A stretch of DNA of 64,000 nucleotides from an uncultured Phycisphaerae bacterium (GTDB taxonomy: Bacteria > Planctomycetota > Phycisphaerae > UBA1845 > PWPN01). Shown one piece after another: positions 1,780 through 38,300 of this stretch. The position numbers and the translations under genes were made by a program. Location: assembly GCA_938005315.1 (NCBI GenBank), contig CALLOB010000014.1:3705-67704 (forward strand). Direction: 5' to 3'. The notes beneath the pieces are model-generated. The model made no database searches, was not told where the DNA came from, and was given only the letters and a program-made list of their open reading frames with translations. Within the stretch, counting starts at the first letter, position 1. Each line of letters starts with the position of its first letter.

Positions 1780-1964
1780 ACACCGCGTCGGCTTGGCCCT
1801 CGCCCGGGCCCGCTCCCCGCCGCCGGAGCTGACGGCGACCCGGTGAGGGCCTTACCGTGCTGCCCGGTCACGTAGATTCGTCCGCCAGCAGGTCCGCGAG
1901 CGTCCGCAACAAGGAAGCGGAGTCCTTCATCGCTCGCCGACGGGTCCCTGTCGGGTTTTACGCC

Positions 1965-2525
1965 ATGAAAATGCTCCTTGCTCTGGCCGTCGTGGTGCTG
2001 GTGTTCGTTGTTGTCCGTCGGGTCCGCGGACGGATGTCGGCCGGACCTTTTCCGCAGGCCGGAAACTCCCGGGCTGAGGTGGTATTCTCTCCGGAGGAGT
2101 ACGAGCGTCACGTCGAAGCCGGGCAGGCCGGGCTGGAGCGCGTCCTGAGGCGGATGCACAATCTCGTGAGCCATGCGATCATTCCGTTCGAGATCGGCGG
2201 CCCCGTGGATCTTTACTACTTCCCCGGCGCCATTCCGGCGACCGGCTTGGCAACCATGGAACTGGTCCGCCCGGACGGCAGCGGGCCGAAGCCCGGCCGG
2301 ATCGGCACCTATGAGCCTGTGGCTTTCACCCGGCTCCTCATGCCGCCGCCGGATTGCAGGGAGGGGCAATATCCTTTCCGCAGGATCGAACGCCGTCTCC
2401 GCAGCATCTTCACCACCCTCGGGAGGCACTCGTGCGACTACTGGAGGCCGATAGTCTGCTACACCATGTGGCTGATGGTCGAACGGCAGACCGACCCCGG
2501 ACCGCCAGTCGCCCAGAGCGGCTGA
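1965..2525 (+). CDS. Membrane-anchored hypothetical protein, possibly SUFU-like fold
   Basis: ATG at 1965 gives MKMLLALAVVVLVFVVVRRVRG (N-terminal TM anchor). The core HAIIPFEIGGPVDLYYFPGAIPATGLATMEL resembles the bacterial Suppressor-of-fused-like pattern, recalled rather than searched. GC3-rich codons. Confidence 0.45.
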   Translation: MKMLLALAVVVLVFVVVRRVRGRMSAGPFPQAGNSRAEVVFSPEEYERHVEAGQAGLERVLRRMHNLVSHAIIPFEIGGPVDLYYFPGAIPATGLATMELVRPDGSGPKPGRIGTYEPVAFTRLLMPPPDCREGQYPFRRIERRLRSIFTTLGRHSCDYWRPIVCYTMWLMVERQTDPGPPVAQSG

Positions 2526-2762
2526 AGGCCGCTAAGCCCCGGCGGGGGGCTCGACCTCGAGCTCCGGGCGTCCCGGCCCGTGAGGCACCACACGCAGGCG
2601 GTGCCGGGCAGCCTGCGGGGGCCTTGACGCCGTACCACCCGGCCGGGCGCGTTTGACAGGCCAGGTTGCGGTCCTCTAGAATGCCGGCCTGCCGAAGCAT
2701 CGGCAGACCCGCCCCGCAGGCCCGCGCCTGCCGCGGTTCGCGTTCCCACAGGAGAGGCTGGA

Positions 2763-2981
2763 ATGATCTGGCGAATGATGCTGCTTGCCGCGGTCGCGGT
2801 CACGGGCCTTCTGAGCACAGGCTGTGCCGACGGCATCGCCTACAGTGGCCGGGAGCGTGAGGAGCGCTATCGCCGCATCATGGACAATGACGCCAAGATG
2901 CTGACCGACGACATCGACCTGTTCCTGCTGGGCGACGACACTTCGCGGCTGAGCCCCTGGCGGATCCATTCGGCCCGCTGA
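2763..2981 (+). CDS. Small lipoprotein (72 aa)
   Basis: Signal peptide plus lipobox MIWRMMLLAAVAVTGLLSTGC. GGAGAGG lies 5-6 nt upstream of the ATG. Confidence 0.55.
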   Translation: MIWRMMLLAAVAVTGLLSTGCADGIAYSGREREERYRRIMDNDAKMLTDDIDLFLLGDDTSRLSPWRIHSAR

Positions 2982-3189
2982 CCGGGGACGCGGGCATCCT
3001 GGCATTCCAGGCTTGGGTTTTCGGGGTCCCAGGCCGCACCTTTCGCTGTTTTGCCCCGCAGCTGCGGGTTTTGGGCTTCAGATTCCCGGTGCCAGCTCCG
3101 ACCGTTTTCGCACGGGCGGGTTTTGACGTGTGCCGGGTCGGCCCGGCCTTCTTCCCGGCGTGTTTCCGTCCATCAGCCTCCCTGGGATG

Positions 3190-3280
3190 GTCGATAATGA
3201 TGGCAGGAACGCCTTAAATCCAGGATGCAATAATTACACTCAAGGAATATGCCACAGGCCAGTTGGGAGTTCGTACAATG
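3190..3280 (+). promoter_or_regulatory. GC-poor island (probable promoter/5' leader) in front of the giant GspK-like gene
   Basis: gataatgatggcaggaacgccttaaatccaggatgcaataattacactcaaggaatatgcc...tcgtacaatg stands out against the GC-rich background. It contains TACAAT (3274..3279) and TAATTACACT. GGAGG at 3286..3290 precedes ATG 3301. Confidence 0.3.
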
Positions 3281-3300
3281 GGTGCGGAGGTAGCCTGGAG

Positions 3301-6300
3301 ATGACCGACGTGAGGATCAGCCCGGCCAGCCGGCGGCCCGGACGCCGCGGAACGGTGCTCATCATGGTGGTGGGCGTCCTGGCGATGCTGTTTGTCATCG
3401 GGGCGACGCACCTGATCGTGGCCCGTTTCGAGCGCAAGACCACCGAGCAGAAGCAGGCGTCGCGCAACATCCGGGGTATTGCCGACGCGGTCGACACCCC
3501 CACGCTGGTCCAGCTCCGCCAGGATATCGTCGGCCACGACGGCATCCCCTACAACGCCTGGGGTCCCTTGAACCCGGCCACCGGCAACGACCAGGTGCCG
3601 GCGGAGGATTACGCGGATTTCGCGGGATATATCGGCAGTGGGAACCTTGCGACAGCTTTCCGCAACGGTGACCTGCTGATCTCGAGCCCGGAGGTTTACC
3701 CCACCGGGTCCGGTTGGCAGGACTGGCGTATCTTCGCCCTGTCCTGGGGCCTCGACGTGCTTCGGGTCAACAGCCCGATCGAGCCGCCCCCCAACCACAT
3801 GGAGGTTTTCCGCCCAGAGTGGCAGGCGGGCCATCCACTCCTCGACGCCGACGCCGATGGAGTGCCTGACGCCCCGTCTGTCAACACTCTGGGCACCTCA
3901 GCCATGTTCGGCGGGACCTACCTGACGTATAACCGTGTCGTTCCGCATGGCGGCATGGTCCTGCTGGACAAGCTGACGCATCCGGCACTGCTGGCCCAGG
4001 TCATCCACCCTGAGGACCGCTACGCCGGCAACGCATTCTACTTCCAGGAGCCGCGGCTGCTGTGGGCCAACTGGTGGGGCCTGGACAACCGCTACCCGGA
4101 CCTCGTGACCGGCAGCGAGGACGAGCGCAAGCTGCGCCGGCGCTTCATGCTGCCGACCAACGAGGACCACACCGTTCTGGCGAGCACCTCGCTGATCGCC
4201 CGGCTGCCGGTGACGTTGGGCTACGCGGCCCCGTCGGGTGCGGGCACCACGTTTCGAACCTGGACGCCGCACTGGTGGCCGATCAACGGCAGCCAGGTCT
4301 TCTACGGCGGCTACAGCGACTGGGACTGGATGCGCGAGCGGCTGGCGCCGCCGGCACCGCTCAGCTCGACAGCCTACAACCCCGGCCGGGACACCTACGA
4401 CCGCCGGCGGCTGGTTACCACGGTCAACAGCGACGACCTGCTCCGCCCGCAGAGGCAGGAGGAGCGGCTCAGGAACGTGGTCACCGCCCCGCTGTACTAC
4501 GTGCTCAACCCCGCATCGGCCGCGGGCGTGGACACCACCACGGTGCCCGGCGTCTCGATCGACACCCGGCCGGACAACGCCTACGGTTCCGTGCGCGTGC
4601 CGGTCCAGACGCCCTACATTGAGCCGGGGGTTTTCAACGTGCCCGGCCTGCGGACGCAGTTCAGTCTGCGGGACGTGCTTGAGCCGGTGCTGAACACCTC
4701 GCTGGGCGGCTTCGAGGGTCTGCCCTCCTACCGCCGGGCCGAGCAGCTCACCGCGTACTTCCTGGCGATGATCCAGCACACCACCGTGCCGGGCAGCGCG
4801 GCGGAGAATCCCAGTCCGCCGCAGCTCCTCGAGCAGCTCCGCACGGCCGCCCAGCTGGCCGTCAACGCGATCGACTTCGCGGACACGTCGGCCGACTACT
4901 GGAACGCGGCCACGGCCGGCGTGGGCCAGGACGGCACGTTCGATGTCGATCTCCCGACCTACTTCGAGTGGCCGCAGGGGCCGGGCGCGACCCCCCAGGT
5001 CCGCGTTCTCGGCGTCGAGAAGCAGCCGTACATCACCGAGGCGTACGTGCGGTTCGTGGTCGAGCCGGACGACAGCGTGCCCCCCAAGTGGCGCAAGCAG
5101 GGCGCCGAGGCGGCGATCTCCGCCGAATCCGTCTGGGCGGTCGAGCTGTACAACCCCTACGACACGGCGATCGCCCTTTCGGACGCCGAGGGTTCGATCA
5201 TCGAGCTTCAGGTGAAGGACGACACCGAGCAGATCACCTGCCGCCTTGGACTGCTGGGGCCCATCCCCGCCGGGCAGTACCTCGTGATCACCAACGCCGC
5301 CGGGGCGCTGACCGCGGAGTTGCAGGCCCTGCTGGGCCCCGCGCTGCCCGGCCAGGTGGTCGATGTGACCGACGGCAGCCGTGTGACGATTGTCGAGCCA
5401 CTGGACCTCCCGGCCGGCGATCTGGGGCCCGGCAGCAGCATCCGACTGGTGCAGCGCCGGGCACTGGCCATCGGCCCGGCCGGCCTGGCCGTTGTGGATC
5501 CGCAGATGGAGATCGACCGGCTCGCCCCGGTGAGGGGTGCCTGGGAGCACGCCCACCCTGTCTACGGCCCCAACGGCGACCGCTGGGCCCAACGGCCGAA
5601 GCTGTCGCTTCGCGATACTCCTGACGGCACGGAGGACAGGTTCATCTGGGACAGCAGTCTGCAGCGCCGCAAGGAGCCGGTTCCGGCCCGACCGGTGTAC
5701 TGGCACTTTACGCTCGCGCGGCAGATGAGCTTCCCGCTGCCTTATGACGAGGACGCCAACAACGAGCACGGGGCCCTGGTGATCGCGGGCGTGCCGAACG
5801 TCGTGCGTACCCGGCCGACCGACCGTCCGCCGCAGCACAACCTCATGGGCAGCCGGCCGCGATATCCGGACGCGGTTCCCCCGGCGGAGTTCTTCGGTCA
5901 CCAGGTGTACCTGGACGGCGAGAATAAGGCGTTCATCAGCAACCAGGAGTTGCTGGCCTGGGAATCCGACGGCCGCTCGATCTACCTCCGCAAGCCCGGC
6001 AGCGTGACGATGCCGGTCGAGCATTTCGCGCTGATCGATATCCCGGCCAACCGCGGTCCGCTGGCCTCCTGCCCGGTCCTCGTCGCTGACGCCGGGGTGG
6101 ACGGCCGCAGCGGCGGAGCCCTGGCCTTCCCGACCACCGGCACGCTGCTGCTGGTCAGCCGCTACGCCCACGAACGCCGGCAGGACCTGGCCGGGACGGC
6201 CAACGAGTGGCTGCCGGCCACCGTGGCCGCGACCCGGGATCCCGGCGACAAGACCAGTGGCATGGTCACCGCCCAGATGCTCAAGCTCGACAACGGCCAT

Positions 6301-7377
6301 CTGCCGGTGTTCGACGCCGTCCAGAGATGCCAGGACAAGTCCGCCGGCAAGGGTCGGCTCGACGTGCCCTGGGGGCAGCTGGTATTCAACTACTTCACGG
6401 CCCTGCCGCTGGAGGAGCTGTATTACTTCGGCGACCTGACCGACCCGCAGTACGAGCAGCAGTACGCGGGGGCGCTGGCCTACGTCAACCCTGTGTTCAA
6501 CAGTCTGTACCTGCCGTCGTTCCCGTACTATCCGGCGGTGGACCGGCTGAGCGACGCCCCGGCGGCGTTCGGGCCCAGGGTGCGCGGGCGGATCAACCTG
6601 AACTACGCCCCCTGGTGGGTGCTGGACGGCCTGCCGGTGCTGCCGGACGCGGTCCGGGGGACGACGGCGGCCAACACGGCCGCGGGAGCGACGACGCGGG
6701 CGTTGCCGGCCGGGGGCGAGGCTCTGCCGGTGGCCGGCGTGCCGGTGCGCGAGATCCTCTCGGGTCGGCTGGATACTGCGGGAGCCGTGAACAGGCCGGG
6801 GCAGGCTCTGGTTCGCGCGGTGATGGACGACCAGAGCGGCGAGGTCGCGCCCACGCAGGTGGCCCGCACTGCCGGACTGCCGACCATCGGCCCGGCGCTG
6901 GCCAAACACATCGTCGCCCGGCGCGAGATCCGGCCGGTGGACGAGCACGGCACGTCGGCCGAGGTGCCCGGCCTGCTGACGGTCGGGACGCTGTGCGAGG
7001 TGGTGGCCGAGGTACGGCTGCCGGACCACGGGATCGGCTCGACGACCGTGACGAGGCCGACGCTCCCGGCCCTGCGTCTGGCGTACGACACCCGGACCTT
7101 CAACACGCCGGAGCTGGCGAGGATCGCCCCGCGGCCGTTCAGCTACCTGGGCTACCTGCAGCTGGTGACGCCGGTGGTGCGGTTGCAGGACTGGGCCACG
7201 GTCAAGAACCACGCGTACACGATCTATACCGTGGTCGGCGACACCGCCGAGCCGCCGGTCTGGCTGAAGACGCAGACCACGGTGGACCGCACCCGCTGCC
7301 TTTACAGCAACGAGCTGCCCGACCGCGTGGTGGTCACCGAGCCGGTGGGCTACCACAACGCCGTCAGCGACCAGTAA
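3301..7377 (+). CDS. Giant (1358 aa) type II secretion minor-pseudopilin GspK-like protein
   Basis: Start chosen at ATG 3301 (MTDVRISPASRRPGRRGTVLIMVVGVLAMLFVIGATHLIV), the GspK-type N-terminus (basic residues plus one TM). The C-terminal region has a GspK-like GRINLNYAPWWVLDGLPVLP and a helix-hairpin-helix-like LPTIGPALAKHIVARREIRP. About 1000 aa of unassigned sequence lies between them. Confidence 0.6.
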   Translation: MTDVRISPASRRPGRRGTVLIMVVGVLAMLFVIGATHLIVARFERKTTEQKQASRNIRGIADAVDTPTLVQLRQDIVGHDGIPYNAWGPLNPATGNDQVPAEDYADFAGYIGSGNLATAFRNGDLLISSPEVYPTGSGWQDWRIFALSWGLDVLRVNSPIEPPPNHMEVFRPEWQAGHPLLDADADGVPDAPSVNTLGTSAMFGGTYLTYNRVVPHGGMVLLDKLTHPALLAQVIHPEDRYAGNAFYFQEPRLLWANWWGLDNRYPDLVTGSEDERKLRRRFMLPTNEDHTVLASTSLIARLPVTLGYAAPSGAGTTFRTWTPHWWPINGSQVFYGGYSDWDWMRERLAPPAPLSSTAYNPGRDTYDRRRLVTTVNSDDLLRPQRQEERLRNVVTAPLYYVLNPASAAGVDTTTVPGVSIDTRPDNAYGSVRVPVQTPYIEPGVFNVPGLRTQFSLRDVLEPVLNTSLGGFEGLPSYRRAEQLTAYFLAMIQHTTVPGSAAENPSPPQLLEQLRTAAQLAVNAIDFADTSADYWNAATAGVGQDGTFDVDLPTYFEWPQGPGATPQVRVLGVEKQPYITEAYVRFVVEPDDSVPPKWRKQGAEAAISAESVWAVELYNPYDTAIALSDAEGSIIELQVKDDTEQITCRLGLLGPIPAGQYLVITNAAGALTAELQALLGPALPGQVVDVTDGSRVTIVEPLDLPAGDLGPGSSIRLVQRRALAIGPAGLAVVDPQMEIDRLAPVRGAWEHAHPVYGPNGDRWAQRPKLSLRDTPDGTEDRFIWDSSLQRRKEPVPARPVYWHFTLARQMSFPLPYDEDANNEHGALVIAGVPNVVRTRPTDRPPQHNLMGSRPRYPDAVPPAEFFGHQVYLDGENKAFISNQELLAWESDGRSIYLRKPGSVTMPVEHFALIDIPANRGPLASCPVLVADAGVDGRSGGALAFPTTGTLLLVSRYAHERRQDLAGTANEWLPATVAATRDPGDKTSGMVTAQMLKLDNGHLPVFDAVQRCQDKSAGKGRLDVPWGQLVFNYFTALPLEELYYFGDLTDPQYEQQYAGALAYVNPVFNSLYLPSFPYYPAVDRLSDAPAAFGPRVRGRINLNYAPWWVLDGLPVLPDAVRGTTAANTAAGATTRALPAGGEALPVAGVPVREILSGRLDTAGAVNRPGQALVRAVMDDQSGEVAPTQVARTAGLPTIGPALAKHIVARREIRPVDEHGTSAEVPGLLTVGTLCEVVAEVRLPDHGIGSTTVTRPTLPALRLAYDTRTFNTPELARIAPRPFSYLGYLQLVTPVVRLQDWATVKNHAYTIYTVVGDTAEPPVWLKTQTTVDRTRCLYSNELPDRVVVTEPVGYHNAVSDQ

Positions 7378-7429
7378 CCGTCGCCGTGGGGCGTCGGCCG
7401 GGAACACCGGCGCCGAGGGCGGCGGCGGG

Positions 7430-9316
7430 TCAGTCCGGGGCCACGAGGTTCAATTCGCCCAGTTCCACCGCCTGTCGGCCGGTGGACAGGGTCTGCGGCC
7501 GGCTGCCGGGCGGCAGGTGGAAAAGGAATACGAAGATGTAGTCCCGGCCGGGTCCGAGGTGTTCCTTGCGGATCCGCTGGAACTTGGGCAGCCGGGCGTT
7601 GGCGTTGCGCTCGGTCTCGTTGAAGTACCGCAGCTCGAAGACCTGCTTGCCATCGACGACCGCGATCGCATAGGCCCCGACCGGCGGATACTCCCGGCCG
7701 TCAGCGTCCTTGAGGCTGTTGACCGGCAGGTTGTCGCTGGCCACGCTGTAGATGTTGCCCAGCCAGCTTTCGGCCCTGAGTTTCTCGACGCTCAGCTGCA
7801 GGAGGCGCATGTTCGGCGGCACCGCGAGCCTGGAGATCGGCTGCTTGTCGCCGTCGAGCGGCTCGCCGTCCCCGCCGAGTTCGGCCATCACGTAGCCGCC
7901 CTCCAGGGCCTGGCCGCGGAGTTCCGCATCGCGTGCCGAATAGCTGGTCAGCGGCCTGGCGAAGGGCAGTTCGTCGCTGAATCGGGCCTCGCGGGCCGGT
8001 CCGACGCCCGAGACGCGGTCCTGGCGGCGGCTCGGGGGCCTGGACTGGCGGCGTTCTCCGGGGTTGCTGTCGTCGGCCGCCTCGGGGTCGGGCTCGCCCC
8101 TGGCCGTGCCGCCCTTCCTGGACCTGGCGTCGGGCGACCGCAGCGCCGGCAGGGGCTTGGGGATGAGCTTGACGGGGTCGAGCGCCGCCCGGGCGGTCAT
8201 CTTGTACTCGACGAAAAGCGGCTCGAAGTCGCGTTCGCCGGGGATCAGAAAGACGACGTCGAACTGGCTGCCTATTCTGGCCTTGAGCACGTGCCCCTCG
8301 GCCGGGCCGACCAGCACCAGTGGTTGAGGGTCGAGGTTCTCGTCGCTGATGGCCCAGGGGAAGTACTCGACGACCGGTCCACCCTTGCCCTGGCGGCCGA
8401 CCAGCCGGATCTGCTCGGTGGAGAAGCGCAGCAGCTGGCCGTCGTCCCGGGCCTTGGCGTCGACCGACAGCCGCAGGTACAGCGGCGCGGCCTGGCGATC
8501 GAACGGCACGTGCTTGAGCCTGACCATCATCTTGCCGGTGGCTTTATCCTTCTCGCGGACGCGTGCGAAGATGCGGCAGGAGTCGGGGACCCGGTTTTCC
8601 GGCAGTTTCCATGTCGCGACCAGCTGGAGACTGTCCGGCGGCACGGCGATGCGGGCCTGCCCGAAGGGGTTGTACCGCCCGCGTTGCAGACGGCCGAGGA
8701 AATCGGGATACACGTCCGTCAGGGGCGTCGTACCGGCCAGGGCATGGCTGGAGAGGTGGGAGACGAGGGCCACCGTGAAACCATCGGGGTTGAGCCACAG
8801 GCTCCGGCGTCGGAACCTGGCCCGGCTCAGATCGACGCGGTTCAGGACGTCCCTGAGGGTTTCGCGCTCGTTCTGGGGTTCCAGGGACACCTCGTTGCCG
8901 CCGTCGTCCAGCAGGACGAACCTGGAGAAGCCCAGGAAGCTGGCCGGGAAGCCGAGCATCTGGGTCCCGGTGGCCAGGATGCCCACGATGATCATGGAGG
9001 TCACGAATCCGAAGACCCCTCCGCCGATGCGGTCGACCATGACCGGAAAGTGGAGGTTGCCGGTGATGAGCCGGTCATAGAGGTTGCGCAGCAGCAACAG
9101 GGCGATGACGAAGATGGACACCAGGGCGATGCCCGCGCCGCGGTCGGGGTTGCGGTCTGCCAGGAACGAGAGGTAGAGATCCTCGTGGAGGCCGAAGGCC
9201 AGGGCCGCCGACAGCACGGTCAGGATGCAGGTGATGACCGCGCTGAACAGGCCGGTCAGCCCCTGATAGAAGGTCATCGCCAGGATCAGGACGATTGCGA
9301 AGAACGAGAACCACAT
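7430..9316 (-). CDS. CvpA-family membrane domain fused to a ~450-aa uncharacterised C-terminal region
   Basis: ATG at 9316 (MWFSFFAIVLILAMTFYQGLTGLFSAVITCILTVLSAALAFG...) with GAGG 8 nt upstream. Four TM helices follow the CvpA arrangement. The remainder has no motif I recognise. Confidence 0.6.
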   Translation of the reverse strand: MWFSFFAIVLILAMTFYQGLTGLFSAVITCILTVLSAALAFGLHEDLYLSFLADRNPDRGAGIALVSIFVIALLLLRNLYDRLITGNLHFPVMVDRIGGGVFGFVTSMIIVGILATGTQMLGFPASFLGFSRFVLLDDGGNEVSLEPQNERETLRDVLNRVDLSRARFRRRSLWLNPDGFTVALVSHLSSHALAGTTPLTDVYPDFLGRLQRGRYNPFGQARIAVPPDSLQLVATWKLPENRVPDSCRIFARVREKDKATGKMMVRLKHVPFDRQAAPLYLRLSVDAKARDDGQLLRFSTEQIRLVGRQGKGGPVVEYFPWAISDENLDPQPLVLVGPAEGHVLKARIGSQFDVVFLIPGERDFEPLFVEYKMTARAALDPVKLIPKPLPALRSPDARSRKGGTARGEPDPEAADDSNPGERRQSRPPSRRQDRVSGVGPAREARFSDELPFARPLTSYSARDAELRGQALEGGYVMAELGGDGEPLDGDKQPISRLAVPPNMRLLQLSVEKLRAESWLGNIYSVASDNLPVNSLKDADGREYPPVGAYAIAVVDGKQVFELRYFNETERNANARLPKFQRIRKEHLGPGRDYIFVFLFHLPPGSRPQTLSTGRQAVELGELNLVAPD

Positions 9317-11472: not shown

Positions 11473-11590
11473 CTGGAGGGCCCGCTCCGTCAGGTCCGTG
11501 AAGAATGGAGGCGATCAGGTCCGCCATCGCGGACGCGAGGGACGGCGTCCCGCCGGGCGGAAGGGGACGCGCCGGAGCGCGTCCTTCGGC
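11473..11590. repeat. Diverged, compressed copy of the hairpin-repeat unit found around tRNA-Ala
   Basis: ggagggcccgctccgtcaggtcc (hairpin 11478..11497, loop CTCCGT), ggacgcgagggacggcgtcc (11531..11550) and ggacgcgccggagcgcgtcc (11565..11584). Order and orientation match the 30.7-31.7 kb units. Confidence 0.6.
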
Positions 11591-16174: not shown

Positions 16175-16337
16175 GGCCCGAAGAACTCCACTCTGGTCCA
16201 CTCTGGCCGCGGACGGCGGCACAGAGCGTTCATTACACCCGATCCGGCATGCTGAATCAACGCCCCGTGCACCGCATCCCTGAGCGTGTCGCTGACGGGT
16301 CGGGCGACCACGAGTTGTCCTCGGCGGCCGGGGAAGC

Positions 16338-16357
16338 GGACGCGACGGAGCGCGTCC
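16338..16357. repeat. Solo copy of the 20-nt hairpin module GGACGCG-ACGGAG-CGCGTCC
   Basis: Exact ggacgcgacggagcgcgtcc followed by ctcc, in the lysA / BatA-like divergent intergenic region. Confidence 0.7.
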
Positions 16358-16521
16358 CTCCAAACGGGCCCGGCGCCGTCGGGGTCACGGACATCGGGAC
16401 GCGGGCTGTAGGACAACCCGATCGCCGGGCCGGGAACGCGGACGGCCGCACTTCCGCCGGCCGGCCGCGCGGGTATACTCGTGCATCGTTGCGAGGTTCC
16501 GCCCTGCACGGACGCGTTCCG

Positions 16522-27743: not shown

Positions 27744-29219
27744 ATGCCCATCCTGATGGTCTTCAACGACCCTGACGACTGGCCGCTCTCCGTCCCCGGC
27801 GTGCAGGTGGTCTCGGCCCGGCGCTATCTGACCGACCCGGCGTTCCACCGTCTGGCGAACACGCGGCTGTTCAATCTCTGCAACTCCTACAGCTACCAGA
27901 GCCGCGGCTACTACGTCTCGCTGCTGGCCGAAGCGCGCGGGCACCGTCCCCAGCCCGACGTGGTCACCATCCAGGACATGAAGTCCTCCGCCCTGGTGCG
28001 GGCCATCGCCGAGGACCTCGACGAGCTCATTCAGAAGACCCTCCGGCCGGTGCACCCGGATCACTTCACGCTGAGCATCTACTTCGGCCGCACGCTGGCC
28101 AGGCGCGACCAGCTCCTGGGACGCCGCCTGTTCGGCCGGTTCCGCACGCCGCTGCTGCGGGCCCAGTTCGACCGGCGGCACGACCGCTGGCACCTGCGCG
28201 GCGTCCGGCCGATTCCGGCCAGCGAGATTCCCGACAACCACCGTCCATTCGTCATCGAGGCCGCGGCCGAGTACTTCGCCCGACGGCAGCGGCCCGGCAA
28301 CACGGCCTCGCCCCCGCGGTATTACCTGGCCATCCTGCACGACCCCGAGGAGCGCGACCCGCCGTCGGATGCGGCGGCCCTCAAGCGCTTCATCCGTGCC
28401 GCGGACCGCCTGGGCTTCGGCTCCGAGCTGATCATCCGCGACGACTACGAGCGGCTCGCCGAGTTCGACGCCCTCTTCATCCGCACCACGACCTTCGTCA
28501 ACAACTACACCTACCGCTTCGCCCGCCGCGCGGTCGCCGAGGGCATGGCGGTCATCGACGATCCCCTGTCCATCGCCCGCTGCACGAACAAGGTTTACCT
28601 GGCCGAGCTGCTCACCCTGCACCAGGTACCCGTGCCGCGCACCATCATCGTGCAGCGCGACAACGCCGACGAGGTCATCGACCGGCTGGGCCTGCCGCTG
28701 GTGCTCAAGCAGCCCGACAGCGCGTTTTCGCAGGGCGTGGTGAAGGTCGCCGACCACCATGCCTACCGCAACGCCATCGACGCCCTGCTGGACCGGTCCG
28801 AGGCCGTGGTCGCCCAGGAGTACATCCCCACCAGCTTCGACTGGCGCGTCGGGCTGATCGACGGCGAGCCGCTGTACGCGTGCAAGTACCACATGGCCCG
28901 CGACCACTGGCAGATCGTCAATCAGCAGGCCGACGGCCGCCACCGCTACGGCAAGACCGAGGCCGTGCCGCTGGAGGAGGCCCCCAAGCGCGTCATCGCC
29001 ACCGCCGTCCGGGCCGCCCGGCACATCGGCGACGGGCTCTACGGCGTGGATCTCAAGCTCGTCGGCGACGCCGCCTATGTCATGGAAGTCAACGACAACC
29101 CCAACATCGACGCCGGATGCGAGGACGCGGTGCTCAAGGACGAGCTCTATGAGCGGATCATCGGCTCGTTCATCCGCCGCATCGAGCGTCTCCGCGAGGG
29201 AGCTGCGCCAGGTGCCTGA
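27744..29219 (+). CDS. RimK-type ATP-grasp ligase with RLAN-type N-terminal domain
   Basis: N-terminal domain NLCNSYSYQSRGYYVSLLAEARGHRPQP (RimK-like ATP-grasp N-terminal pattern). ATP-grasp core KVYLAELLTLHQVPVPRT, LPLVLKQPDSAFSQGV, VVAQEYIPTSFDWRV, GVDLKLVGDAAYVMEVNDNP. Confidence 0.8.
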   Translation: MPILMVFNDPDDWPLSVPGVQVVSARRYLTDPAFHRLANTRLFNLCNSYSYQSRGYYVSLLAEARGHRPQPDVVTIQDMKSSALVRAIAEDLDELIQKTLRPVHPDHFTLSIYFGRTLARRDQLLGRRLFGRFRTPLLRAQFDRRHDRWHLRGVRPIPASEIPDNHRPFVIEAAAEYFARRQRPGNTASPPRYYLAILHDPEERDPPSDAAALKRFIRAADRLGFGSELIIRDDYERLAEFDALFIRTTTFVNNYTYRFARRAVAEGMAVIDDPLSIARCTNKVYLAELLTLHQVPVPRTIIVQRDNADEVIDRLGLPLVLKQPDSAFSQGVVKVADHHAYRNAIDALLDRSEAVVAQEYIPTSFDWRVGLIDGEPLYACKYHMARDHWQIVNQQADGRHRYGKTEAVPLEEAPKRVIATAVRAARHIGDGLYGVDLKLVGDAAYVMEVNDNPNIDAGCEDAVLKDELYERIIGSFIRRIERLREGAAPGA

Positions 29220-30615
29220 CGCGCCGTCCAGCCCGGGGTTGTTCGAGGCCTTCGGCATCGAGCTGGAATACATGATCGTCGATGCCGAAGGCCTGGACGT
29301 GCGTCCGCTGTGCGACCGGGTGCTGGAGGCGGTCGCGGGGCCCGGCGCCGGCGACGCGGTCTTCGACGACACCGCCTGGTCCAACGAGCTGGTCGCCCAC
29401 GTCATCGAGCTCAAGACCGCCGCCCCGGCGCCGCGCCTGGCCGGTCTGGCCGAGGCATTCCAGCGCGACGTGCGGCGGATCAACGAGCTGCTGGCCCCGT
29501 CGGGCGCCCGGCTGATGCCCGGGCCGATGCACCCCTGGATGGATCCGGCGACCGAAACCCGCCTCTGGCCGCATGGCGGCGGCGAGATCTACCGGACCTT
29601 CGACGCCATCTTCGGCTGCCGCGGCCACGGCTGGTCGAACCTGCAGAGCATGCATGTCAACCTGCCGTTCCGCGACGACGCCGGCTTCGGCAGGCTGCAC
29701 GCGGCGGTCCGGCTGGTGCTGCCGATCCTGCCGGCCCTGGCCGCCGGGTCGCCGATCGTCGATGCCAGGATCACCGGCCTGCGCGACAGCCGCCTGGTGG
29801 CCTACAGGACCAACTGCGCGCGGATCCCCAGCATCACCGGCCGGGTCATTCCCGAGCCGGTGTTCACCGAGGAGGAGTACCGCGCCCGCATCCTCGAGCC
29901 CATCTATCGCGACACCGCGCCGTACGACCCGGAGGGCATCCTCGCCTGCGAGTGGGCCAATGCCCGCGGAGCCATCGCCCGTTTCGAGCGCCGCACCATC
30001 GAGATCCGCGTGCTGGACGTCCAGGAGTGCCCGGCGGCCGATCTGGCCGTCGCGGCCGCGACCGTCGCGGCCATCAGGCTCCTGGCCGAGGAAACCTGGT
30101 GCCCGCCGGCCGCGCTGCAGGCCTGGCCGGTCGATCCGCTGGGCGACCTGCTGGAGGCCTGCATCCGCGACGGCGAGGACGCGGTGATCGGGAACGCCGC
30201 GTACCTGAAGACCTTCGGCCTTACAGGTGTGTCCGTCTGCACCGCCGGCCAGCTGTGGCGCCACCTCGTCGAGCAGGCCGAGCGCCGTCTGCCCGGTGAG
30301 CTGGACCACTGCCGCGAGGCCCTGACCGTGCTGCTGGAGGAAGGCCCTTTGGCGACGCGCATCCTGCGAATCACCGGACAAGATCCGCCGTCGCGGCGGC
30401 ACGGACATCCCTTGCCGGTTCTGCGCGCGGATCACTCGCCGGGCGAGTCTCCGCATCCTCCACTGCACGAGCCCTCCGCAGCGGCATTCTTGCCCCCGGG
30501 CGCCCCGCGGCAACCATCCTTGCCCCCGGCGGCCCTGCGCCGCGTCGCCGAAGCCCTCTGCGCCTGCCTGGACGAGGGGCGCATGCTTCATGCCGACCCC
30601 CCTGCAGCATCCTGA
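29212..30615 (+). CDS. Carboxylate-amine ligase, glutamate-cysteine ligase family 2 (GCS2)
   Basis: GTG 29212 (GAGGGAG 9 nt upstream) overlaps the RimK-like stop by 8 nt. FGIELEYMIVD, NELVAHVIELKT, WSNLQSMHVNLPF and RTIEIRVLD are GCS2-type motifs. The C-terminus carries a ~50-aa Pro-rich insert. Confidence 0.75.
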   Translation: MPDAPSSPGLFEAFGIELEYMIVDAEGLDVRPLCDRVLEAVAGPGAGDAVFDDTAWSNELVAHVIELKTAAPAPRLAGLAEAFQRDVRRINELLAPSGARLMPGPMHPWMDPATETRLWPHGGGEIYRTFDAIFGCRGHGWSNLQSMHVNLPFRDDAGFGRLHAAVRLVLPILPALAAGSPIVDARITGLRDSRLVAYRTNCARIPSITGRVIPEPVFTEEEYRARILEPIYRDTAPYDPEGILACEWANARGAIARFERRTIEIRVLDVQECPAADLAVAAATVAAIRLLAEETWCPPAALQAWPVDPLGDLLEACIRDGEDAVIGNAAYLKTFGLTGVSVCTAGQLWRHLVEQAERRLPGELDHCREALTVLLEEGPLATRILRITGQDPPSRRHGHPLPVLRADHSPGESPHPPLHEPSAAAFLPPGAPRQPSLPPAALRRVAEALCACLDEGRMLHADPPAAS

Positions 30616-30669
30616 CGGCCGCGGCTCGGTCCGCCGATTGCCCCACGGCAGGCAAGGCTTCAGGACCGA

Positions 30670-31050
30670 CGCCCCCTGCGACGCAGCGCGTCCGCCAGGA
30701 GGGCCCCGCTCTGTCGGGGCCGCCGGAATGGACACGAGAAAGCCCGTGATATGTTTCCCCAGGACCGGGGGCGCGACGGAGCGCGTCCCTCCGGAAGATG
30801 GATTCGGACAGCCCGACGGCGGACGCGACGGAGCGCGTCCCTCCGGGGGCCGCCGATCCCGGCGCGACGCGGTGCGTTTCATCGGAGGGCCCCGCTCTGT
30901 CGGGGCCGCCGGAATGGACACGAGAAAGCCCGTGATATGTTTCCCCCAGGACCGGGGGCGCGACGGATCGCGTCCCTCGCGGGGCCGCAGACGGGGACGC
31001 GAGGGAGCACGTCCCTGCAGGGTCGTGGATCGGGACGCTACTGTCGCCCG
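30670..31050. repeat. About 1.9 tandem units of a 186-187-bp repeat, on the tRNA-Ala 3' side
   Basis: ggccccgctctgtcggggcc at 30702 and 30888. gggcgcgacgga(g/t)cgcgtcc at 30769 and 30956. ggacgcgacggagcgcgtcc at 30821, with a diverged version at 30994..31015. A 1-nt indel (tttcccc vs tttccccc) separates the units. Confidence 0.85.
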
Positions 31051-31160
31051 CCGTCCTGGCTCAGGCGAGTGGCTCTACCGGCTTTAGGTACTGGGTCTAC
31101 TGCCGCTTCGCGCCGCGGGCCGTGTTCGTAAGCCTTGCAAGAAAAGGAAATTGCAGTCAA

Positions 31161-31233
<73 letters not shown>

Positions 31234-31294
31234 GGGGAAGCTTTCGTGTCACCTTTCCGGTCGGGACGCGGCTGACCGGCGTCCACGAGGCACT

Positions 31295-31323
31295 ATTAGA
31301 CCGCCAAGGAGGCGGTCCGTCAA
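31295..31323 (-). promoter_or_regulatory. Putative sigma70-type promoter of tRNA-Ala
   Basis: On the minus strand, TTGACG (31323..31318), 17 nt, then TCTAAT (31300..31295). This lies about 60 nt upstream of the mature tRNA 5' end. Confidence 0.35.
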
Positions 31324-31394
31324 GGGCGGCTGATGGCTGGTCGGGAAGCCGGGTTCGTGGCAAGTCAGGGACCACGCGTCGCTCGGGGGGGCCG

Positions 31395-31668
31395 GGCGAA
31401 GGGGCGCGACGGAGCGCGTCCCTCCGGAGGATGGATTCGGACCGCGTGACGGCGGACGCGACGGAGCGCGTCCCTCCGGGGGCCGCCGATCGCGGCGCGA
31501 CGCGGCGCGTTTCATCGGAGGGCCCCGCTCTGTCGGGGCCGCCGGAATGGACACGAGAAAGCCCGCGATATGTTTCCCCGAGGACCGGGGACGCGACGGA
31601 GCGCGTCCCTCCGGAGGATGGATTCGGACCGCGCGACGGCGGACGCGACGGAGCGCGTCCCTCCGGGG
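31395..31668. repeat. About 1.5 tandem units of the same 186-187-bp repeat, on the tRNA-Ala 5' side
   Basis: Hairpins at 31402, 31454, 31521, 31589 and 31641. Same plus-strand orientation and near-identical sequence to 30670..31050. Confidence 0.85.
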
Positions 31669-31764
31669 CCACAGATAACCGGGCCCAGGCCGTCACGTGG
31701 CCAGGGAAGCCTGGGGCGGTCCGAAATGCCGGGGGGCACGGCGCGTGGCAGCGGGCCCCGTGTC

Positions 31765-33108
31765 TCACGTTGCCGGATCGGCTGGGACCAGAGGGGGCAG
31801 GTGGTCGATGGGGACCGCCTTCTGCGAGGCCTCATCCCACCCGTACATGCGTCCGTCGAACCACGACTGGTTGCCCATGCACATCGCGGCCACGCCGTAA
31901 AGCCCTAGCTGCGCCGGGCAGTTCAGGGGGGCGTCATGGCGGATGGCGGCCTGGAGGTTGCGGTGGTGCAGGCCGACGTCTTCGCCGCCGGTGCGGACGT
32001 GGCGCTCGACCTCGCGGCCGGCGGGATCGAGGATCTTCCAGCCCTCGAAGTCCCACCCCTGATGGGGGCTGAAAACCAGCGTGCCGTCCTGCCCCCGGAT
32101 GCAGTGGTCGTAACGGTGATGGTTGGACATGGTGCCCAGCAGATGCACGGTGAGCCCCGGCGAGACGCCCTCGATGGGGGGATACTCCAGAAGGATCTGA
32201 AAGTTGTCGGGCAGGTCCCGGCCGTCCGGCCAGATGAGAATGCCGCCCATGCCGGCGACGCGTCGAGGGAAGGTGAACCCCAGGGCTTTCATCAGCCGGG
32301 TCAGGCGGTGGATGAAAAGGTCCGAGGCGATCCCGCCGCTGTAGTCGCGGTAGCATCGCCAGTCCCGGTATCGCCGCGGGTCCCAGGGGCGAGGGGGAGC
32401 CGGTTTCAGCCAGGTTTCCCAGTCCAGGTCGGGCGGCTTGGGGCTCCGGGGGTCGATGCCGGATCGCATGGCCCCGGGAACGCGCTCATAGTGACGGGCG
32501 TACTCGATCTGGGCGGCGACCACCGGGCCGATGCGGCCGGCGCGGATCGCCTCGCAGGCCCGGGCGTAGCTGTCGTCGCTCATGCCCTGGACGCCGACCT
32601 GCAGCTTCAGGCCGGTCTTGCGCACGGCCTCAAGGACCTCCTGGGCCTCCTGGATGGTATGGGTCAGCGGCTTCTCGCAGTAGACGTGCTTTCCGGCGGT
32701 CAGGGCATCCAGGGTGACGAGGTGGTGGCTGTGTTCCGGCGTGGCGACCACGACGTAATCCAGGTCTTTCGACTCGACCAGTGAGCGATGGTCGGAGAAG
32801 ACCCGGGCCTGCCCGCCGGCGGCGGCCACCCGCTCGGCGAATCGACGGGCCCTGGTTTCATAGACGTCGGCCACGGCCGTGACCGCGACGTTCTGGGCCT
32901 CGCCCATCTGCAGCAGGGCCCCGAGGTGTGCCTCGGCCATTCCGCCGCAGCCGACGATGCCCACGCGCAGCCGGTCGCCGGCCCCGAGAGCTTGTGACGA
33001 GGGCGCTGTGGTCTGGGCCCGGGCCCTGGCGGCTTGAACGGCGGCGCCGGCTGCACAGACGGAGGCGGCCAGAAAACGTCTTCGCGTAACCGAACTGGCT
33101 GGGTTCAT
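31765..33108 (-). CDS. Gfo/Idh/MocA-family oxidoreductase with Tat signal
   Basis: MNPASSVTRRRFLAASVCAAGAAVQAARA (twin-arginine). Rossmann LRVGIVGCGGMAEAH and EKPL motif YCEKPLTHT. Confidence 0.8.
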   Translation of the reverse strand: MNPASSVTRRRFLAASVCAAGAAVQAARARAQTTAPSSQALGAGDRLRVGIVGCGGMAEAHLGALLQMGEAQNVAVTAVADVYETRARRFAERVAAAGGQARVFSDHRSLVESKDLDYVVVATPEHSHHLVTLDALTAGKHVYCEKPLTHTIQEAQEVLEAVRKTGLKLQVGVQGMSDDSYARACEAIRAGRIGPVVAAQIEYARHYERVPGAMRSGIDPRSPKPPDLDWETWLKPAPPRPWDPRRYRDWRCYRDYSGGIASDLFIHRLTRLMKALGFTFPRRVAGMGGILIWPDGRDLPDNFQILLEYPPIEGVSPGLTVHLLGTMSNHHRYDHCIRGQDGTLVFSPHQGWDFEGWKILDPAGREVERHVRTGGEDVGLHHRNLQAAIRHDAPLNCPAQLGLYGVAAMCMGNQSWFDGRMYGWDEASQKAVPIDHLPPLVPADPAT

Positions 33109-35390: not shown

Positions 35391-38300
35391 TCAGTCCGCG
35401 CAGCGCAGATCGTAGAATTCCATTCCCGACAGACATCGCTGGAACGGGCCGAAATCGCGCTGGTCCACGTCGCCGTCGAGGTCTTCGTCGAAGCGGTCGC
35501 ACGCCACCGGCCCGCCGGTGGGGTAGGGCAGGCCGGAGCCCGTGAGACAGGCCTGGAACGCGCCGAAGTCGTTGCCGTTCACCCGGCCATCGTTGTCGGT
35601 GTCGTAGGTGAACACCGCGATGCCGTCGGAGGCCCCGACCTCGCTGACGCCGCCGACATGGTTGGTGGCCCGGACCTCGAACACATACGTCCGACCCAGC
35701 AGCAGCGGCAGCGCGGTGGCATGGACGGACGTGGCCGGGCCGACGTCGGTCCAGTCGCGGATCACCGGCCCGCCCTGTTCGACCACGCGGTACTCATAGC
35801 CGCGGATGCCGCTCTCGGGGTCCTCGGCCGACCAGGCGGCATTCAGCGTGGAGCGGCTGACCGACAGCGTCCCGTCGTCGGTGACCACCGGCGTGCTCGG
35901 CGGGCTGGGCTCGGGCCCCTTGTAGACGAAGCGGGCCGCGTCCGCGCTGACGAAGCGGTCCGTCTGACCGGTGTTGTTGGACACCTGGACGTAGCCGCCG
36001 GTTCCGGGGGCGAACAGCAGGTCCTGGCCGATCAGGAACCACCCGCCCTGGTTGGGGGTCGAGGAGTACTGGTTCTGGATGCTGACGACCTGCCCGCCGT
36101 GGTGCACGACCTTGTAGGGTGCCGCGGAGGTGCGGTTGCTGCCGATCTGATAGTACACGTACACGTCGTAGAGGCCCCAGTCGGGGATGTTCGGTGTCCA
36201 GCGGCAGGATCGGGTGGCGTCGGCCTCCTGCGTACTGCTGACGCCGTAGCCGTAAAGATAGTTAGTTCCGATCCTGGGCACCGAGGAGCTGCTGCCGACG
36301 CTCCAGGTGTTGGGCGGGACGGAGGTATTGGACCATCCCGGGTCGGTGTTGTCGATCAGGATCTCCGAGGCCATGTCCAGGGTGGTGAAAGTGCCGTCGG
36401 CGGACTCGTCGGAGCCGTAGCTGTTGGCCGAGACCGCCTGGAAGTGGTAGAGCGTGGCCGGCGACAGGCCGGTGACGACTACCGAATGATTGTTGACCAG
36501 GGCGGGGTCCACGGGCGTCTGGCTTCCATAGGCCGGTGTGGTGCCGTAGCGGACCATGCCGTCGGCCCTGGCGCTGGTGGTCCAGGTGATCGTGGCCGAG
36601 GAGGCGGTGACCTGGGCGACCTGCACGTTGGAGATCACCGGGGGTCCGTCGGTCGAGAAGGTGAAGTCTTCGGACATGCCGGTGCCGTTGGCGTTGGTGG
36701 AACGGGCCCGGCAGTGGTAGAGGGTTCCGGGGGTCAGTCCGCTGAGCGTGACGGTGTGGCCGGTGACCAGGGCGGGGTCGACCGGCGTGGACTGGCCGTA
36801 CGAGGGCGTGGTGCCGTACTCGACCTGCGAGGTCGAGGCCTGGTCGGTGTTCCAGATGATGGTCGCGGCGTCCTGGGTCACGTTGGTCGCCTGGAGGTTG
36901 AAGATCGACGGCGGGGCGGTGCTGCCCAGGGCGAGGTTGCGGGTGAACATGTTGCCGGTCACCTGGCCCAGGGCGACGGTGACCGTGCCGACGGCGTCGG
37001 CATAGCCGGCCTTGGAGGCGGTGACGGTGTAGGTTCCCGGCGTCAGGTCGATGAAGGCGTAGAAGCCCGTGCCGTCGACGTACATGCTGCGGTTTTCGGG
37101 GCCGGTCAGGGTCACGACGGCGTGGTCGGCCGGCGTGGTGCCCGGGTGGTAGGTGACGGTGCCTTTAATATGCCCTTTTGTGGGCGACGCCTTCCAGGGC
37201 ATGACCGGGATGTTGTCGGGTGTCGGCGTCACATGGGCGACCAGCTGCGGGGAGAAGCTCGACCAGGTTCCGCCGCTGTAGGGCACGCGATAGGAGTAGC
37301 CGCAGAAGCCGTTGGCGTAGTTGCCGGCCGGCGAGGGGTCGCGGGTCATGAGGATCTCGTTGATGGCGTTGGTCAGCGAGTTCAAGTAGATGCCCGGCCC
37401 GATGACCATGAAGCGGTTGAACTTTCGGTCCTTCTCGAAGTTCATCCAGCGCACGTAGTCGTTGGGCAGCGAGGCCCAGTTGTAGTAGGTCATGGGTACG
37501 GCGATATCGATGATGCCCTCCTGCATCCAGGCGTCCCAGTCGCTGTAGACGTCGTAGTACGGGCGGGTGCCCTGGAAGGCCGTCCGGGTCGAGGCGGTGG
37601 GCGAGGGGTTCCAGGTGACGAAAGCGCCGGAGATCTTCACGTGCGGCTTGACGGCCTGGGTGTCGGCATAGACCTTGCGCACCAGGGAGGTGATCTGGTC
37701 GCGCCGCCACTGCTTGAACAGCTCGCTGGTGGGGGACGGCTGGCCCGTCAGGCCGTGGCGGGTGTTGTAGCGCGCGACGCTTGTGGGGTTGTAGCCCTGG
37801 TCGTAGCCGGTGAAGCGGATATAGTCGTAGTGCAGGCCGTCGATGTCGAAGTTCTGGACCAGGTCCATGCACACGTCGTGGATGTACTGCAGGCAGCCGG
37901 GGTGCCCGGGGTCGAAGGCCTTGTCGGCGGTCTCGTTGCCGGCGTCGTCGAGCGTGACCCAGTAGTTGGCCGGGTCGGCGGGGTCGTTGTGCAGGTAGTA
38001 CACCGGCGAGGTACCGCTGCTGCTGGCGGTGGCGAAGGTCACGATCCAGGCGTGCACCTCGATGCGCTGCTTGCCGCCGGTGGTGTCGTGGGCGGCGTTG
38101 ATCATGGCCTGAAGGGCGTTGAAGTTCGAGGGGCTCAGGCCGCTGAAGTAGGGCTCGCCCATGGCCGAGGGATAACACACGTCGGCCCGGCGGCGGACCT
38201 GCACGAAGACCGCGTTGCAGTTGGCGTTGCGGATCTGTCCCTTGCTGGAGGCGTTGCCCGGCACGCCCAGCAGCGTGTCCACCTGGCTCTGGCTGAGGAA

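Follow-up and report, generated by a model that had tools for sequence, protein, structure and literature searches.

A BIME-like cluster of GGAG-tagged palindromes in an uncultured Phycisphaerae bacterium, very probably part of a widespread REP/RAYT family

Introduction

What kind of element is the array of short palindromes that surrounds a tRNA-Ala gene in the genome of an uncultured Phycisphaerae bacterium of the Planctomycetota? The array lies between two convergent genes within the window, i.e. the whole stretch of 64,000 nucleotides that was analysed. The Ffh protein encoded in the window shares 77-82% identity with proteins from MAGs named as Phycisphaerae. An initial annotation had likened its hairpins to REP/BIME-type elements, but palindromes of this sort could also represent a structured RNA, the ends of a classical MITE or the product of local duplication. 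The evidence presented here indicates that the modules are very probably REPs in a BIME-like cluster, belonging to a widespread family of GGAG-tagged REPs and RAYTs. Members of this family are recognised by GGAG as the 5' tag, followed by a 7-bp stem rich in G+C and by a loop of 6 nt, most often CTCCGT. Two stem types occur per genome in opposite orientation and form inverted heterodimers of the REPIN/BIME kind.

Architecture of the main cluster

Eleven modules of 24 nt lie around the tRNA-Ala gene in the 1.15-kb gap between the two convergent genes (window 30616-31764), eight of them B-type and three A-type, with the two types oppositely oriented. The module is laid out as a 7-bp stem beginning with GG, a 6-nt loop, a second arm ending in CC and a CTCC tail, which is GGAG on the other strand. 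The B-type, with the stem GGACGCG, reads stem-loop-stem-CTCC on the + strand; the A-type, with the stem GGCCCCG, is inverted and reads 5'-GGAG-GGCCCCG-CTCTGT-CGGGGCC. In the following list, the strand of a module is the one that reads the tag first, and modules said to be recovered by both methods were found by pattern and by covariance model.

29077-30615, + strand: GCS2-family gene, bordering the cluster gap
30670..31668, no strand: BIME-like cluster of REP modules, between the convergent genes and surrounding the tRNA gene
near 30672-30694: possible truncated module, seen by eye
30698..30721, + strand: A-type REP, GGAG then GGCCCCG-CTCTGT-CGGGGCC, 34.7 bits
30769..30792, - strand: B-type REP, GGGCGCG-ACGGAG-CGCGTCC-CTCC on the + strand, G:T at stem position 3, 35.2 bits
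30821..30844, - strand: B-type REP, canonical GGACGCG-ACGGAG-CGCGTCC-CTCC, 37.2 bits
30861..30880, - strand: possible decayed B-like module GGCGCGACGCGGTGCGTTTC, seen by eye and not recovered by the model
30884..30907, + strand: A-type REP, second copy, both methods
30956..30979, - strand: B-type REP, degraded, loop ACGGAT, tail CTCG, 20.1 bits
30995..31018, - strand: B-type REP, degraded, GGACGCG-AGGGAG-CACGTCC-CTGC, 22 bits
31161..31233, - strand: tRNA-Ala, anticodon GGC, between the cluster halves, not repeat material
31402..31425, - strand: B-type REP, GGGCGCG variant, both methods
31454..31477, - strand: B-type REP, canonical, both methods
31494-31513: second possible decayed module, seen by eye
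31517..31540, + strand: A-type REP, third copy, both methods
31589..31612, - strand: B-type REP, canonical, both methods
31641..31664, - strand: B-type REP, canonical, last module, about 100 nt past the oxidoreductase stop codon, both methods
31765-33108, - strand: GFO/IDH/MocA oxidoreductase gene, bordering the cluster gap

The three hairpins that the initial annotation had described at 30702-30721, 30769-30788 and 30821-30840 are present as it gave them. Its first loop, CTCTGT, is one base off CTCCGT, the exact reverse complement of ACGGAG, and the inversion of the first module is confirmed by the GGAG that precedes it, the complement of the CTCC found after the other modules. The two stem differences of this module are both compensated, and a G:T pair at stem position 3 does arise from GGGCGCG/CGCGTCC. 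The pattern given there, GGNCNCG-N6-CGNGNCC, has 14 matches in the window against 1.57 expected, with 0 of 100 shuffles reaching this number; the matches at 10646 and 27718 are treated as chance because they lie within coding regions, have no tail and are not recovered by the covariance model described below. Longer strings are also enriched in the window, the A-type 24-mer with 3 matches and the 25-mer that includes the CTCCG tail with 8 matches at ≤3 mismatches, against 0 expected for either.

Within the cluster the order A, B, B is repeated, with A and B alternating in orientation, conserved spacers between them and a repeat unit of about 186 nt, which by eye seems to hold a decayed module (30861-30880) as its fourth. 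The units are 85-95% identical, and a direct repeat of 211 nt (95% identity, spacing 633 nt) flanks the tRNA gene, which shows that the array was built by local duplication or recombination. Tandem Repeats Finder does not report the ~186-nt unit in the window, since the array is short and interrupted. When 30690-30850 is folded as single-stranded DNA, the second B is predicted to be the partner of A, giving a single long hairpin of the REPIN kind (z = -3.2). No intrinsic terminators and no sigma-70 promoters were found in 30400-31900. The short-read contig covering the cluster region terminates at the cluster. GC skew places the whole window on one replichore, and as A and B point in opposite ways no strand bias with respect to replication is derived from this.

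Further copies in the window and a present/absent site

A covariance model trained solely on RAYT-flanking modules of other metagenomes recovers 15 modules in the 64-kb window, all of them within three intergenic regions. Ten of the matches are strong (E ≤ 1.1e-4) and five are weaker (E 0.03-0.3), and the next one, at E 0.63, is noise. The copies away from the main cluster are the following.

11475..11588, no strand: diverged A, B, B cluster, intergenic, with a GGDEF gene and a T2SSE ATPase gene as neighbours, 16.7-20.1 bits
11475-11497: A-like module with the exact loop CTCCGT, in the 11.5-kb cluster
11531-11554 and 11565-11588: B-like modules, in the 11.5-kb cluster
16295..16422, no strand: segment of about 128 nt, bracketed by the 8-bp inverted repeat GTTGTCCT/AGGACAAC, absent from three relatives
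16338-16361: canonical B REP, intergenic, within the ~128-nt segment
16367-16387: decayed A-like partner within the ~128-nt segment, seen by eye

The copies at 11.5 kb are diverged and the one at 16.3 kb is separate, which argues against recent duplication of a single unit, an outcome that the initial annotation had allowed for. It also bears on the explanation that one hairpin unit was duplicated purely locally, in tandem, round the tRNA gene, with neither a family nor a function behind it. The similarity of the cluster units and the direct repeat on either side of the tRNA gene fit such an origin, but it accounts for the growth of the array and not for the family, as identical modules occur in many unrelated genomes and beside RAYT genes; as a full explanation it is extremely unlikely.

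The ~128-nt segment is missing from the equivalent site, upstream of an Orn/DAP decarboxylase gene, in three close relatives (L219-L221). This one present/absent site bears on the mobility of the modules, and as a comparison among close relatives alone it can be read as insertion or as deletion. No clear target-site duplication or other signature is seen at this one site, and the segment folds no better than its shuffles (z = -0.7). L216, another relative, with an oxidoreductase that clusters at ≥90% identity, lacks both the REP cluster and the tRNA downstream of that gene; it was considered for the orthologous site of the main cluster and found not comparable, since the gene order breaks exactly there.

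Distribution in other genomes and organisation in doublets

The further copies that the initial annotation had expected are found in the window and, judged by record titles among the matches listed, in about ten bacterial phyla. In a scan of genome collections, the 20-mer CGACGGAGCGCGTCCCTCCG occurs at ≥91 loci. The matches listed include Verrucomicrobiota (among them the isolate Chthoniobacter flavus Ellin428), Kiritimatiellae, Lentisphaerae, Planctomycetota, Chloroflexi, several Desulfobacterota lineages, Bacteroidota, Calditrichaeota, Zixibacteria and Poribacteria, and several MAGs among them contribute 8-15 contigs each. Two matches, in Streptomyces and Thermoplasmata, look like chance, with the 5' arm missing. 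In viral contigs a degenerate pattern gave 43 matches, nearly all of them unpaired chance matches and 0 with the GGACGCG stem, which argues that the element is not phage-borne. The same scan doubles as a null for pairing. Repeats free of stop codons extend spurious ORFs at 55-70% G+C, and ORF-based context counts of foreign loci were set aside.

In other genomes an inverted A-type partner (GGAGG-stem-CTCCGT-stem') usually lies beside the B module, with the loop exactly CTCCGT in most of them. Among the matches listed, such a partner lies ≤120 nt away in 51 of 85 full B modules; the tags point outward in 38 of these doublets (median gap 28 nt) and inward in 13. The stem of the partner is never GGACGCG and always fully paired (GGCCACG, GGCTGCG, GGTCACG, GGGCAAC, GGCCATG and others), so that every doublet found among the matches listed is a heterodimer whose arms have different stems. 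Modules are also found singly or as direct pairs, and either relative order occurs. In Kiritimatiellae the doublet is the core of an element of about 170 nt with longer outer inverted repeats. One copy lies in frame, translated as DGGTRSVAS, inside an RHS-repeat ORF.

A doublet of near reverse complements, often 5-100 nt apart, could be taken for a classical MITE that goes back to a DDE-type insertion sequence and is moved in trans, in which A and B would be the terminal inverted repeats. The ~170-nt element of Kiritimatiellae and the 8-bp inverted repeat that brackets the 16.3-kb segment are in keeping with this explanation. It is nevertheless very unlikely, because each arm is itself palindromic and is found alone, in direct pairs and in both orders, and because a target-site duplication is not evident at the one filled/empty site. 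Over the 91 matches listed, no neighbouring gene family of any kind recurs, DDE transposases included. The sole recurrent associated gene encodes a RAYT of the HUH/Y1 type.

The associated RAYT clade

The ORFs of the listed loci were searched by motif and with phmmer, which yielded two RAYT-like proteins. One of them, from a Smithellaceae locus (L022), is a strong RAYT, but it is flanked by classical GTAG REPs of different sequence and was rejected as the cognate enzyme. The other, from a Kiritimatiellae MAG (L033), scores 91.7 bits against NF047646 (REP_Tyr_transpos, cut-off 80) and 23 bits against PF01797. Upstream of its gene lie a B module, then B and A separated by 19 nt, then a B module abutting the ORF; downstream, B and A are again separated by 19 nt.

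In the databases 3130 homologues of the protein are found, some 155-165 aa long, and the alignment of the clade contains the invariant motifs MPDH(I/V)H(L/F)F, WQxxxWD(T)QxR and (E)Y(V)xxNP. Against PDB 4ER8, the structure of the E. coli TnpA-REP, the clade profile gives a match at E = 1.8e-11 in which both the HUH and the catalytic tyrosine regions align. The annotated N-termini of several homologues are translations of modules: GGPRSVVA comes from A, GRDGARPS from B and ERTRQSASLQ from B in another frame.

The association was tested on 80 independent metagenome loci that were chosen only by RAYT similarity, with a strict module defined by 7 paired positions, a 6-nt loop and CTCC. Strict modules lie ≤400 nt from the RAYT gene in 53 of the 80 loci and on both sides of it in 46, at a median distance of ~30 nt. 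Most of the remaining 27 loci carry GGAGG-tagged palindromes of other geometry, as judged by eye, and wherever a repeat is visible in the 80 loci the tag of the palindrome is GGAG or GGAGG. The structure-blind pattern GG-N16-CCCTCC occurs 233 times in the 51 kb of RAYT flanks as compared to 29 times in the remaining 193 kb, i.e. at 4.5 per kb against 0.15 per kb, an enrichment of ~30-fold. In 165 of the 233 flank matches the five free stem pairs are all Watson-Crick, and they represent some tens of stem sequences. The orientation of the modules closest to the RAYT genes is mixed and not uniformly inverted. The REP/BIME-type reading put forward in the initial annotation is thus supported by a RAYT clade that is flanked by the same modules in independent loci. 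Its suggestion to look for such an enzyme was borne out in other genomes, where RAYT genes are bracketed by these modules, but not locally, as no RAYT is encoded in the 64-kb window.

RAYT clusters defined at ≥65% identity carry cluster-specific stem pairs, and most RAYTs are accompanied by two stem types, for instance GGACGTG with GGACATG, GGACGAC with GGACGGG, or GGACGCG with GGCCA(C/T)G. Such cluster-specific stems are as expected for the co-evolution of cognate RAYTs and REPs. The module-flanked RAYTs are 55-69% identical to one another. In the E. coli TnpA-REP, the segment that contacts GTAG includes W94, Q95, E100, H101 and R104 (PMC6006769). The RAYT clade keeps W, Q and R in this segment and has D at the position of E100 and T at that of H101. 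The threonine at the His101 position may, judging from the alignment, account for the change from T to G in the tag.

Stem covariation and the role of the tail

For 117 distinct modules from RAYT loci, the stem is paired in 88.5% of cells as compared to 62.6% after shuffling, and there are 223 double-change cells against 76 in shuffles, with all five variable pairs changed on both sides. The observed stem pairing is attained by 0 of 500 shuffles, and controls in which the register was slid reach 36-55%. This test is not circular, as the modules were picked blind to pairing, and stem covariation, for which the initial annotation had asked, is thus strong.

The same does not hold for the alternative CGGAG/CTCCG stem that the initial annotation had postulated. 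The loop GGAG is complementary to the CTCC tail in ~79% of cells, but loop and tail do not covary: the tail is constant and 20-30 of the 117 distinct modules have loops unable to pair with it, such as CAGAAG, GAGGCC or ACGGCG, in a test that is one-sided because the search pattern fixed the tail and made compensation unobservable. A pseudoknot arising from the loop/tail complementarity was also considered and ruled out on geometry, as zero linker nucleotides between stem and tail would leave it no room. CTCC is better read as the complement of a 5' GGAG tag that is conserved and corresponds to the GTAG guide in classical REPs.

A covarying stem with a loop complementary to its tail also invites an explanation as a structured RNA family, either a small RNA or a cis-regulatory element, in which a loop/tail switch would influence the binding of ribosomes or the stability of transcripts. 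GGAGG corresponds to the Shine-Dalgarno sequence and CCTCC to its complement, so that the CCUCC tail resembles an anti-Shine-Dalgarno, and the cluster lies immediately 3' of two convergent genes. However, a DNA hairpin that is read by a protein would covary equally, tail-incompatible loops are common and uncompensated, and a true pseudoknot would be barred by the zero-length linker. The modules occur in both orientations within one cluster with neither fixed relative to neighbouring genes, they are linked to a transposase gene rather than to a regulated gene family, and one copy is in frame within the RHS-repeat ORF. The Rfam search points in the same direction, with only the tRNA found in the window at the gathering score and otherwise, even at E ≤ 5, only sX7 at 15.6 bits against a gathering score of 55. 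A structured RNA is therefore an improbable explanation, and the modules are taken as REPs in what follows.

Comparison with known REP systems

The modules combine a paired palindrome, multiple extragenic copies, inverted doublets and, in other genomes, a flanked RAYT of the Y1 HUH type, all of which characterise REPs and BIMEs. The tag is GGAG instead of GT[AG]G, the defining tag of classical REPs linked to RAYTs, and differs from it in the second base. In E. coli BIMEs, the Y and Z REP types alternate. The likeness to the REP/BIME and TnpA-REP system of E. coli extends to the short G+C-rich imperfect palindrome with its unpaired 5' tetranucleotide tag, to the two sequence types alternating in orientation with conserved linkers, to the extragenic position, often 3' of genes, and to the single small HUH/Y1 gene bracketed by repeats; conservation between 4ER8 and the clade covers the WQ..FW..R segment as well as the HUH motif and the region of the catalytic tyrosine. 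In contrast to E. coli, GGAG takes the place of GTAG as the tag, the 7-bp stem is perfect and free of bulges with a loop of 6 nt, E100 and H101 are replaced by D and T in the clade, and the same 24-mer is found in many phyla.

The REPINs of Pseudomonas (Bertels and Rainey) are likewise inverted REP doublets with a short spacer that can fold into a long hairpin and are linked to a RAYT. The doublets described here differ in being all heterodimers, whose different stems make the long hairpin imperfect, and in their spread across phyla, as opposed to a limit at species groups. The subterminal hairpins of IS200/IS605 resemble the modules in that a hairpin and a guide tetranucleotide at its foot are recognised on ssDNA by a Y1 HUH enzyme. 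However, the L033 protein scores 22.5 bits against the IS200 cut-off of 55, yet lies above the RAYT cut-off; neither a TnpB gene nor a structure with distinct left and right ends was seen, and there are vastly more repeats than copies of the gene. In L033, the stretch enclosed by the flanking modules shows no second large ORF.

The GTAG and CGTC REP superfamilies, as set out in the text of Di Nocera et al. 2013 (PMC3733652), share with the present family the tagged stem-loops of 6-9 bp, the sub-families with alternative complementary stems, the head-to-head and tail-to-tail dimers, often heterodimers, with spacers of 20-100 bp, the occasional in-frame intragenic copies and the presence in the PVC superphylum and Chloroflexi. 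The tags given in that text are different ones, namely GTAG (GYAG, GYRG, GTRG, GTMG, GTGG) and CGTC, and across REP surveys, as far as their available text goes, tags are GTAG variants, CGTC, CnGA or 'atypical' structures. Figures excepted, the main texts of Di Nocera 2013 (PMC3733652), Quentin 2018 and Nunvar 2010 do not contain the GGAG tag, and neither the text nor the available supplements of Di Nocera 2013 contain this tag or the module strings. Nunvar 2010 names none of the phyla that were looked for in it. A literature search with four 14-15-mers of the module sequences found no paper.

Across about ten phyla the 24-nt B module stays identical, and yet the flanked RAYTs share only 55-69% identity, which would imply either that whole REPtrons were transferred repeatedly between phyla or that an unusually strong constraint acts on one arm of an obligate heterodimer. 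All of this could be joined in a single reading, namely a third tag superfamily beside GTAG and CGTC with a RAYT clade of its own, a threonine behind the change of the tag, and transfer or constraint behind the identity of the B module. As a whole, this joint reading is put forward tentatively and is somewhat more doubtful than not.

A proposed mechanism

By analogy with the E. coli REP and TnpA-REP, the hairpins would form on single-stranded DNA, where a cognate RAYT, an HUH/Y1 nuclease, would bind the hairpin together with its tag. By nicking and rejoining the DNA the enzyme could spread or remove doublets, and arrays could then grow through local recombination. The RAYTs of the clade would accordingly be expected to bind and cleave the modules in a sequence-specific manner, with indirect support from the stem types that are particular to each RAYT cluster. 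We infer that the source genome carries such a RAYT as well. The modules may also have a role for the host, e.g. in shielding the 3' ends of mRNAs that lie beyond the two convergent genes.

Implications

Overall, this is an ordinary kind of bacterial repeat, with the GGAG tag as its distinctive feature. The repeats in the window are selfish or domesticated REP elements rather than a new RNA gene or a regulatory switch, if the very probable assignment made above is correct, and they explain both the break of the short-read assembly at the cluster and the difference in gene order from a close relative exactly there. In many database proteins of the RAYT clade, the N-terminus is falsely extended by a translated REP. 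Specialists might find three points of note: a GGAG tag that goes with a matching change in the recognition segment of the RAYT, doublets that are strictly heterodimeric, and a B module that is identical across phyla despite the divergence of the RAYTs.

The family thereby widens the REP/RAYT system, which now takes in a GGAG tag as well as little-studied phyla, including Planctomycetota, Verrucomicrobiota, Kiritimatiellota, Chloroflexota and Desulfobacterota. If true, transfer between phyla or a strong constraint on one arm would fit poorly with RAYTs that are vertically inherited and domesticated. The change in the recognition segment of the RAYT, the change of one base in the tag and the stem types that track the RAYT clusters amount to a natural experiment, which could reveal how Y1 nucleases read their guide tetranucleotide.

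The tRNA-Ala gene and the REP array

The REP array at 30670-31668, between the convergent genes of a GCS2-family protein and a GFO/IDH/MocA oxidoreductase, contains a tRNA gene as well as palindromic modules:

30768-30978, direct repeat of 211 nt, copy 1
31161-31233, tRNA-Ala(GGC) gene
31401-31611, direct repeat of 211 nt, copy 2

The two repeat copies are 95% identical with a spacing of 633 nt and lie on either side of the tRNA, which places the tRNA-Ala gene within the REP array. The 3' CCA is not encoded, as the sequence after the discriminator base A reads TTG (31161-31236).

In a relative whose neighbouring oxidoreductase clusters with that of the window at 90% identity or more (L216), the tRNA and the REP array are both missing at this site, and it is precisely here that the gene order of the two diverges. 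A short-read assembly of the locus around 31765 (L092, Logan contig from ERR9287621) stops just past the oxidoreductase gene, about 120 nt beyond the stop codon and at the start of the REP cluster; this is consistent with an assembly broken by the repeat.

Other features of the window

The GCS2-family ORF carries a short duplication at its 3' end:

30485-30539, two direct repeats of 25 nt, 30 nt apart

In the protein, these repeats (CATTCTTGCCCCCGGGCGCCCCGCG and CATCCTTGCCCCCGGCGGCCCTGCG) would appear as a short duplication, rich in proline, within the C-terminal tail. The cumulative GC skew climbs over the entire window, which therefore lies on one replichore. At 36001-38000, within a minus-strand gene of 1022 aa (GHL10, CarboxypepD_reg and fn3 domains), the GC and AT skews (0.21 and -0.16) stand well above those of the remaining window.

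REP modules in other genomes

In six loci from Kiritimatiellae MAGs (L005, L024, L026, L032, L066 and L074), the B module (GGACGCG stem) and its oppositely oriented A-type partner form the core of a repeat of about 170 nt, with additional outer inverted repeats of about 32 nt (CCAGTTTCCAATACTTTTCAGTCTATTCTCAG...); this repeat is a composite element around the REP doublet. B modules also occur in frame, as the peptide DGGTRSVAS, within very long RHS-repeat ORFs of two MAGs, one of Kiritimatiellae and one of Lentisphaerae:

L076, 3645-3668, inside the minus-strand ORF 966-7529
L009, 6282-6305, inside a very long RHS-repeat ORF

These represent either in-frame REP insertions or a conserved coding segment.

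Translated REP modules appear as N-terminal extensions of database RAYT proteins from the clade linked to the GGAG-type modules (P0002, P0005, P0007, P0012, P0015, P0021 and P0027 in alignment A1), with upstream modules giving the peptides GGPRSVVA, GRDGARPS and ERTRQSASLQ. As the modules lack stop codons, the start codons of these extended proteins were probably mis-called.

A Smithellaceae MAG rich in GGAG-type modules encodes a strong RAYT match (L022, 1-730; 195 bits) flanked by REPs of a different, classical type, GTAGGGTGCGTTA...TAACGCACC. Two REP/RAYT systems seem to coexist in this one genome.
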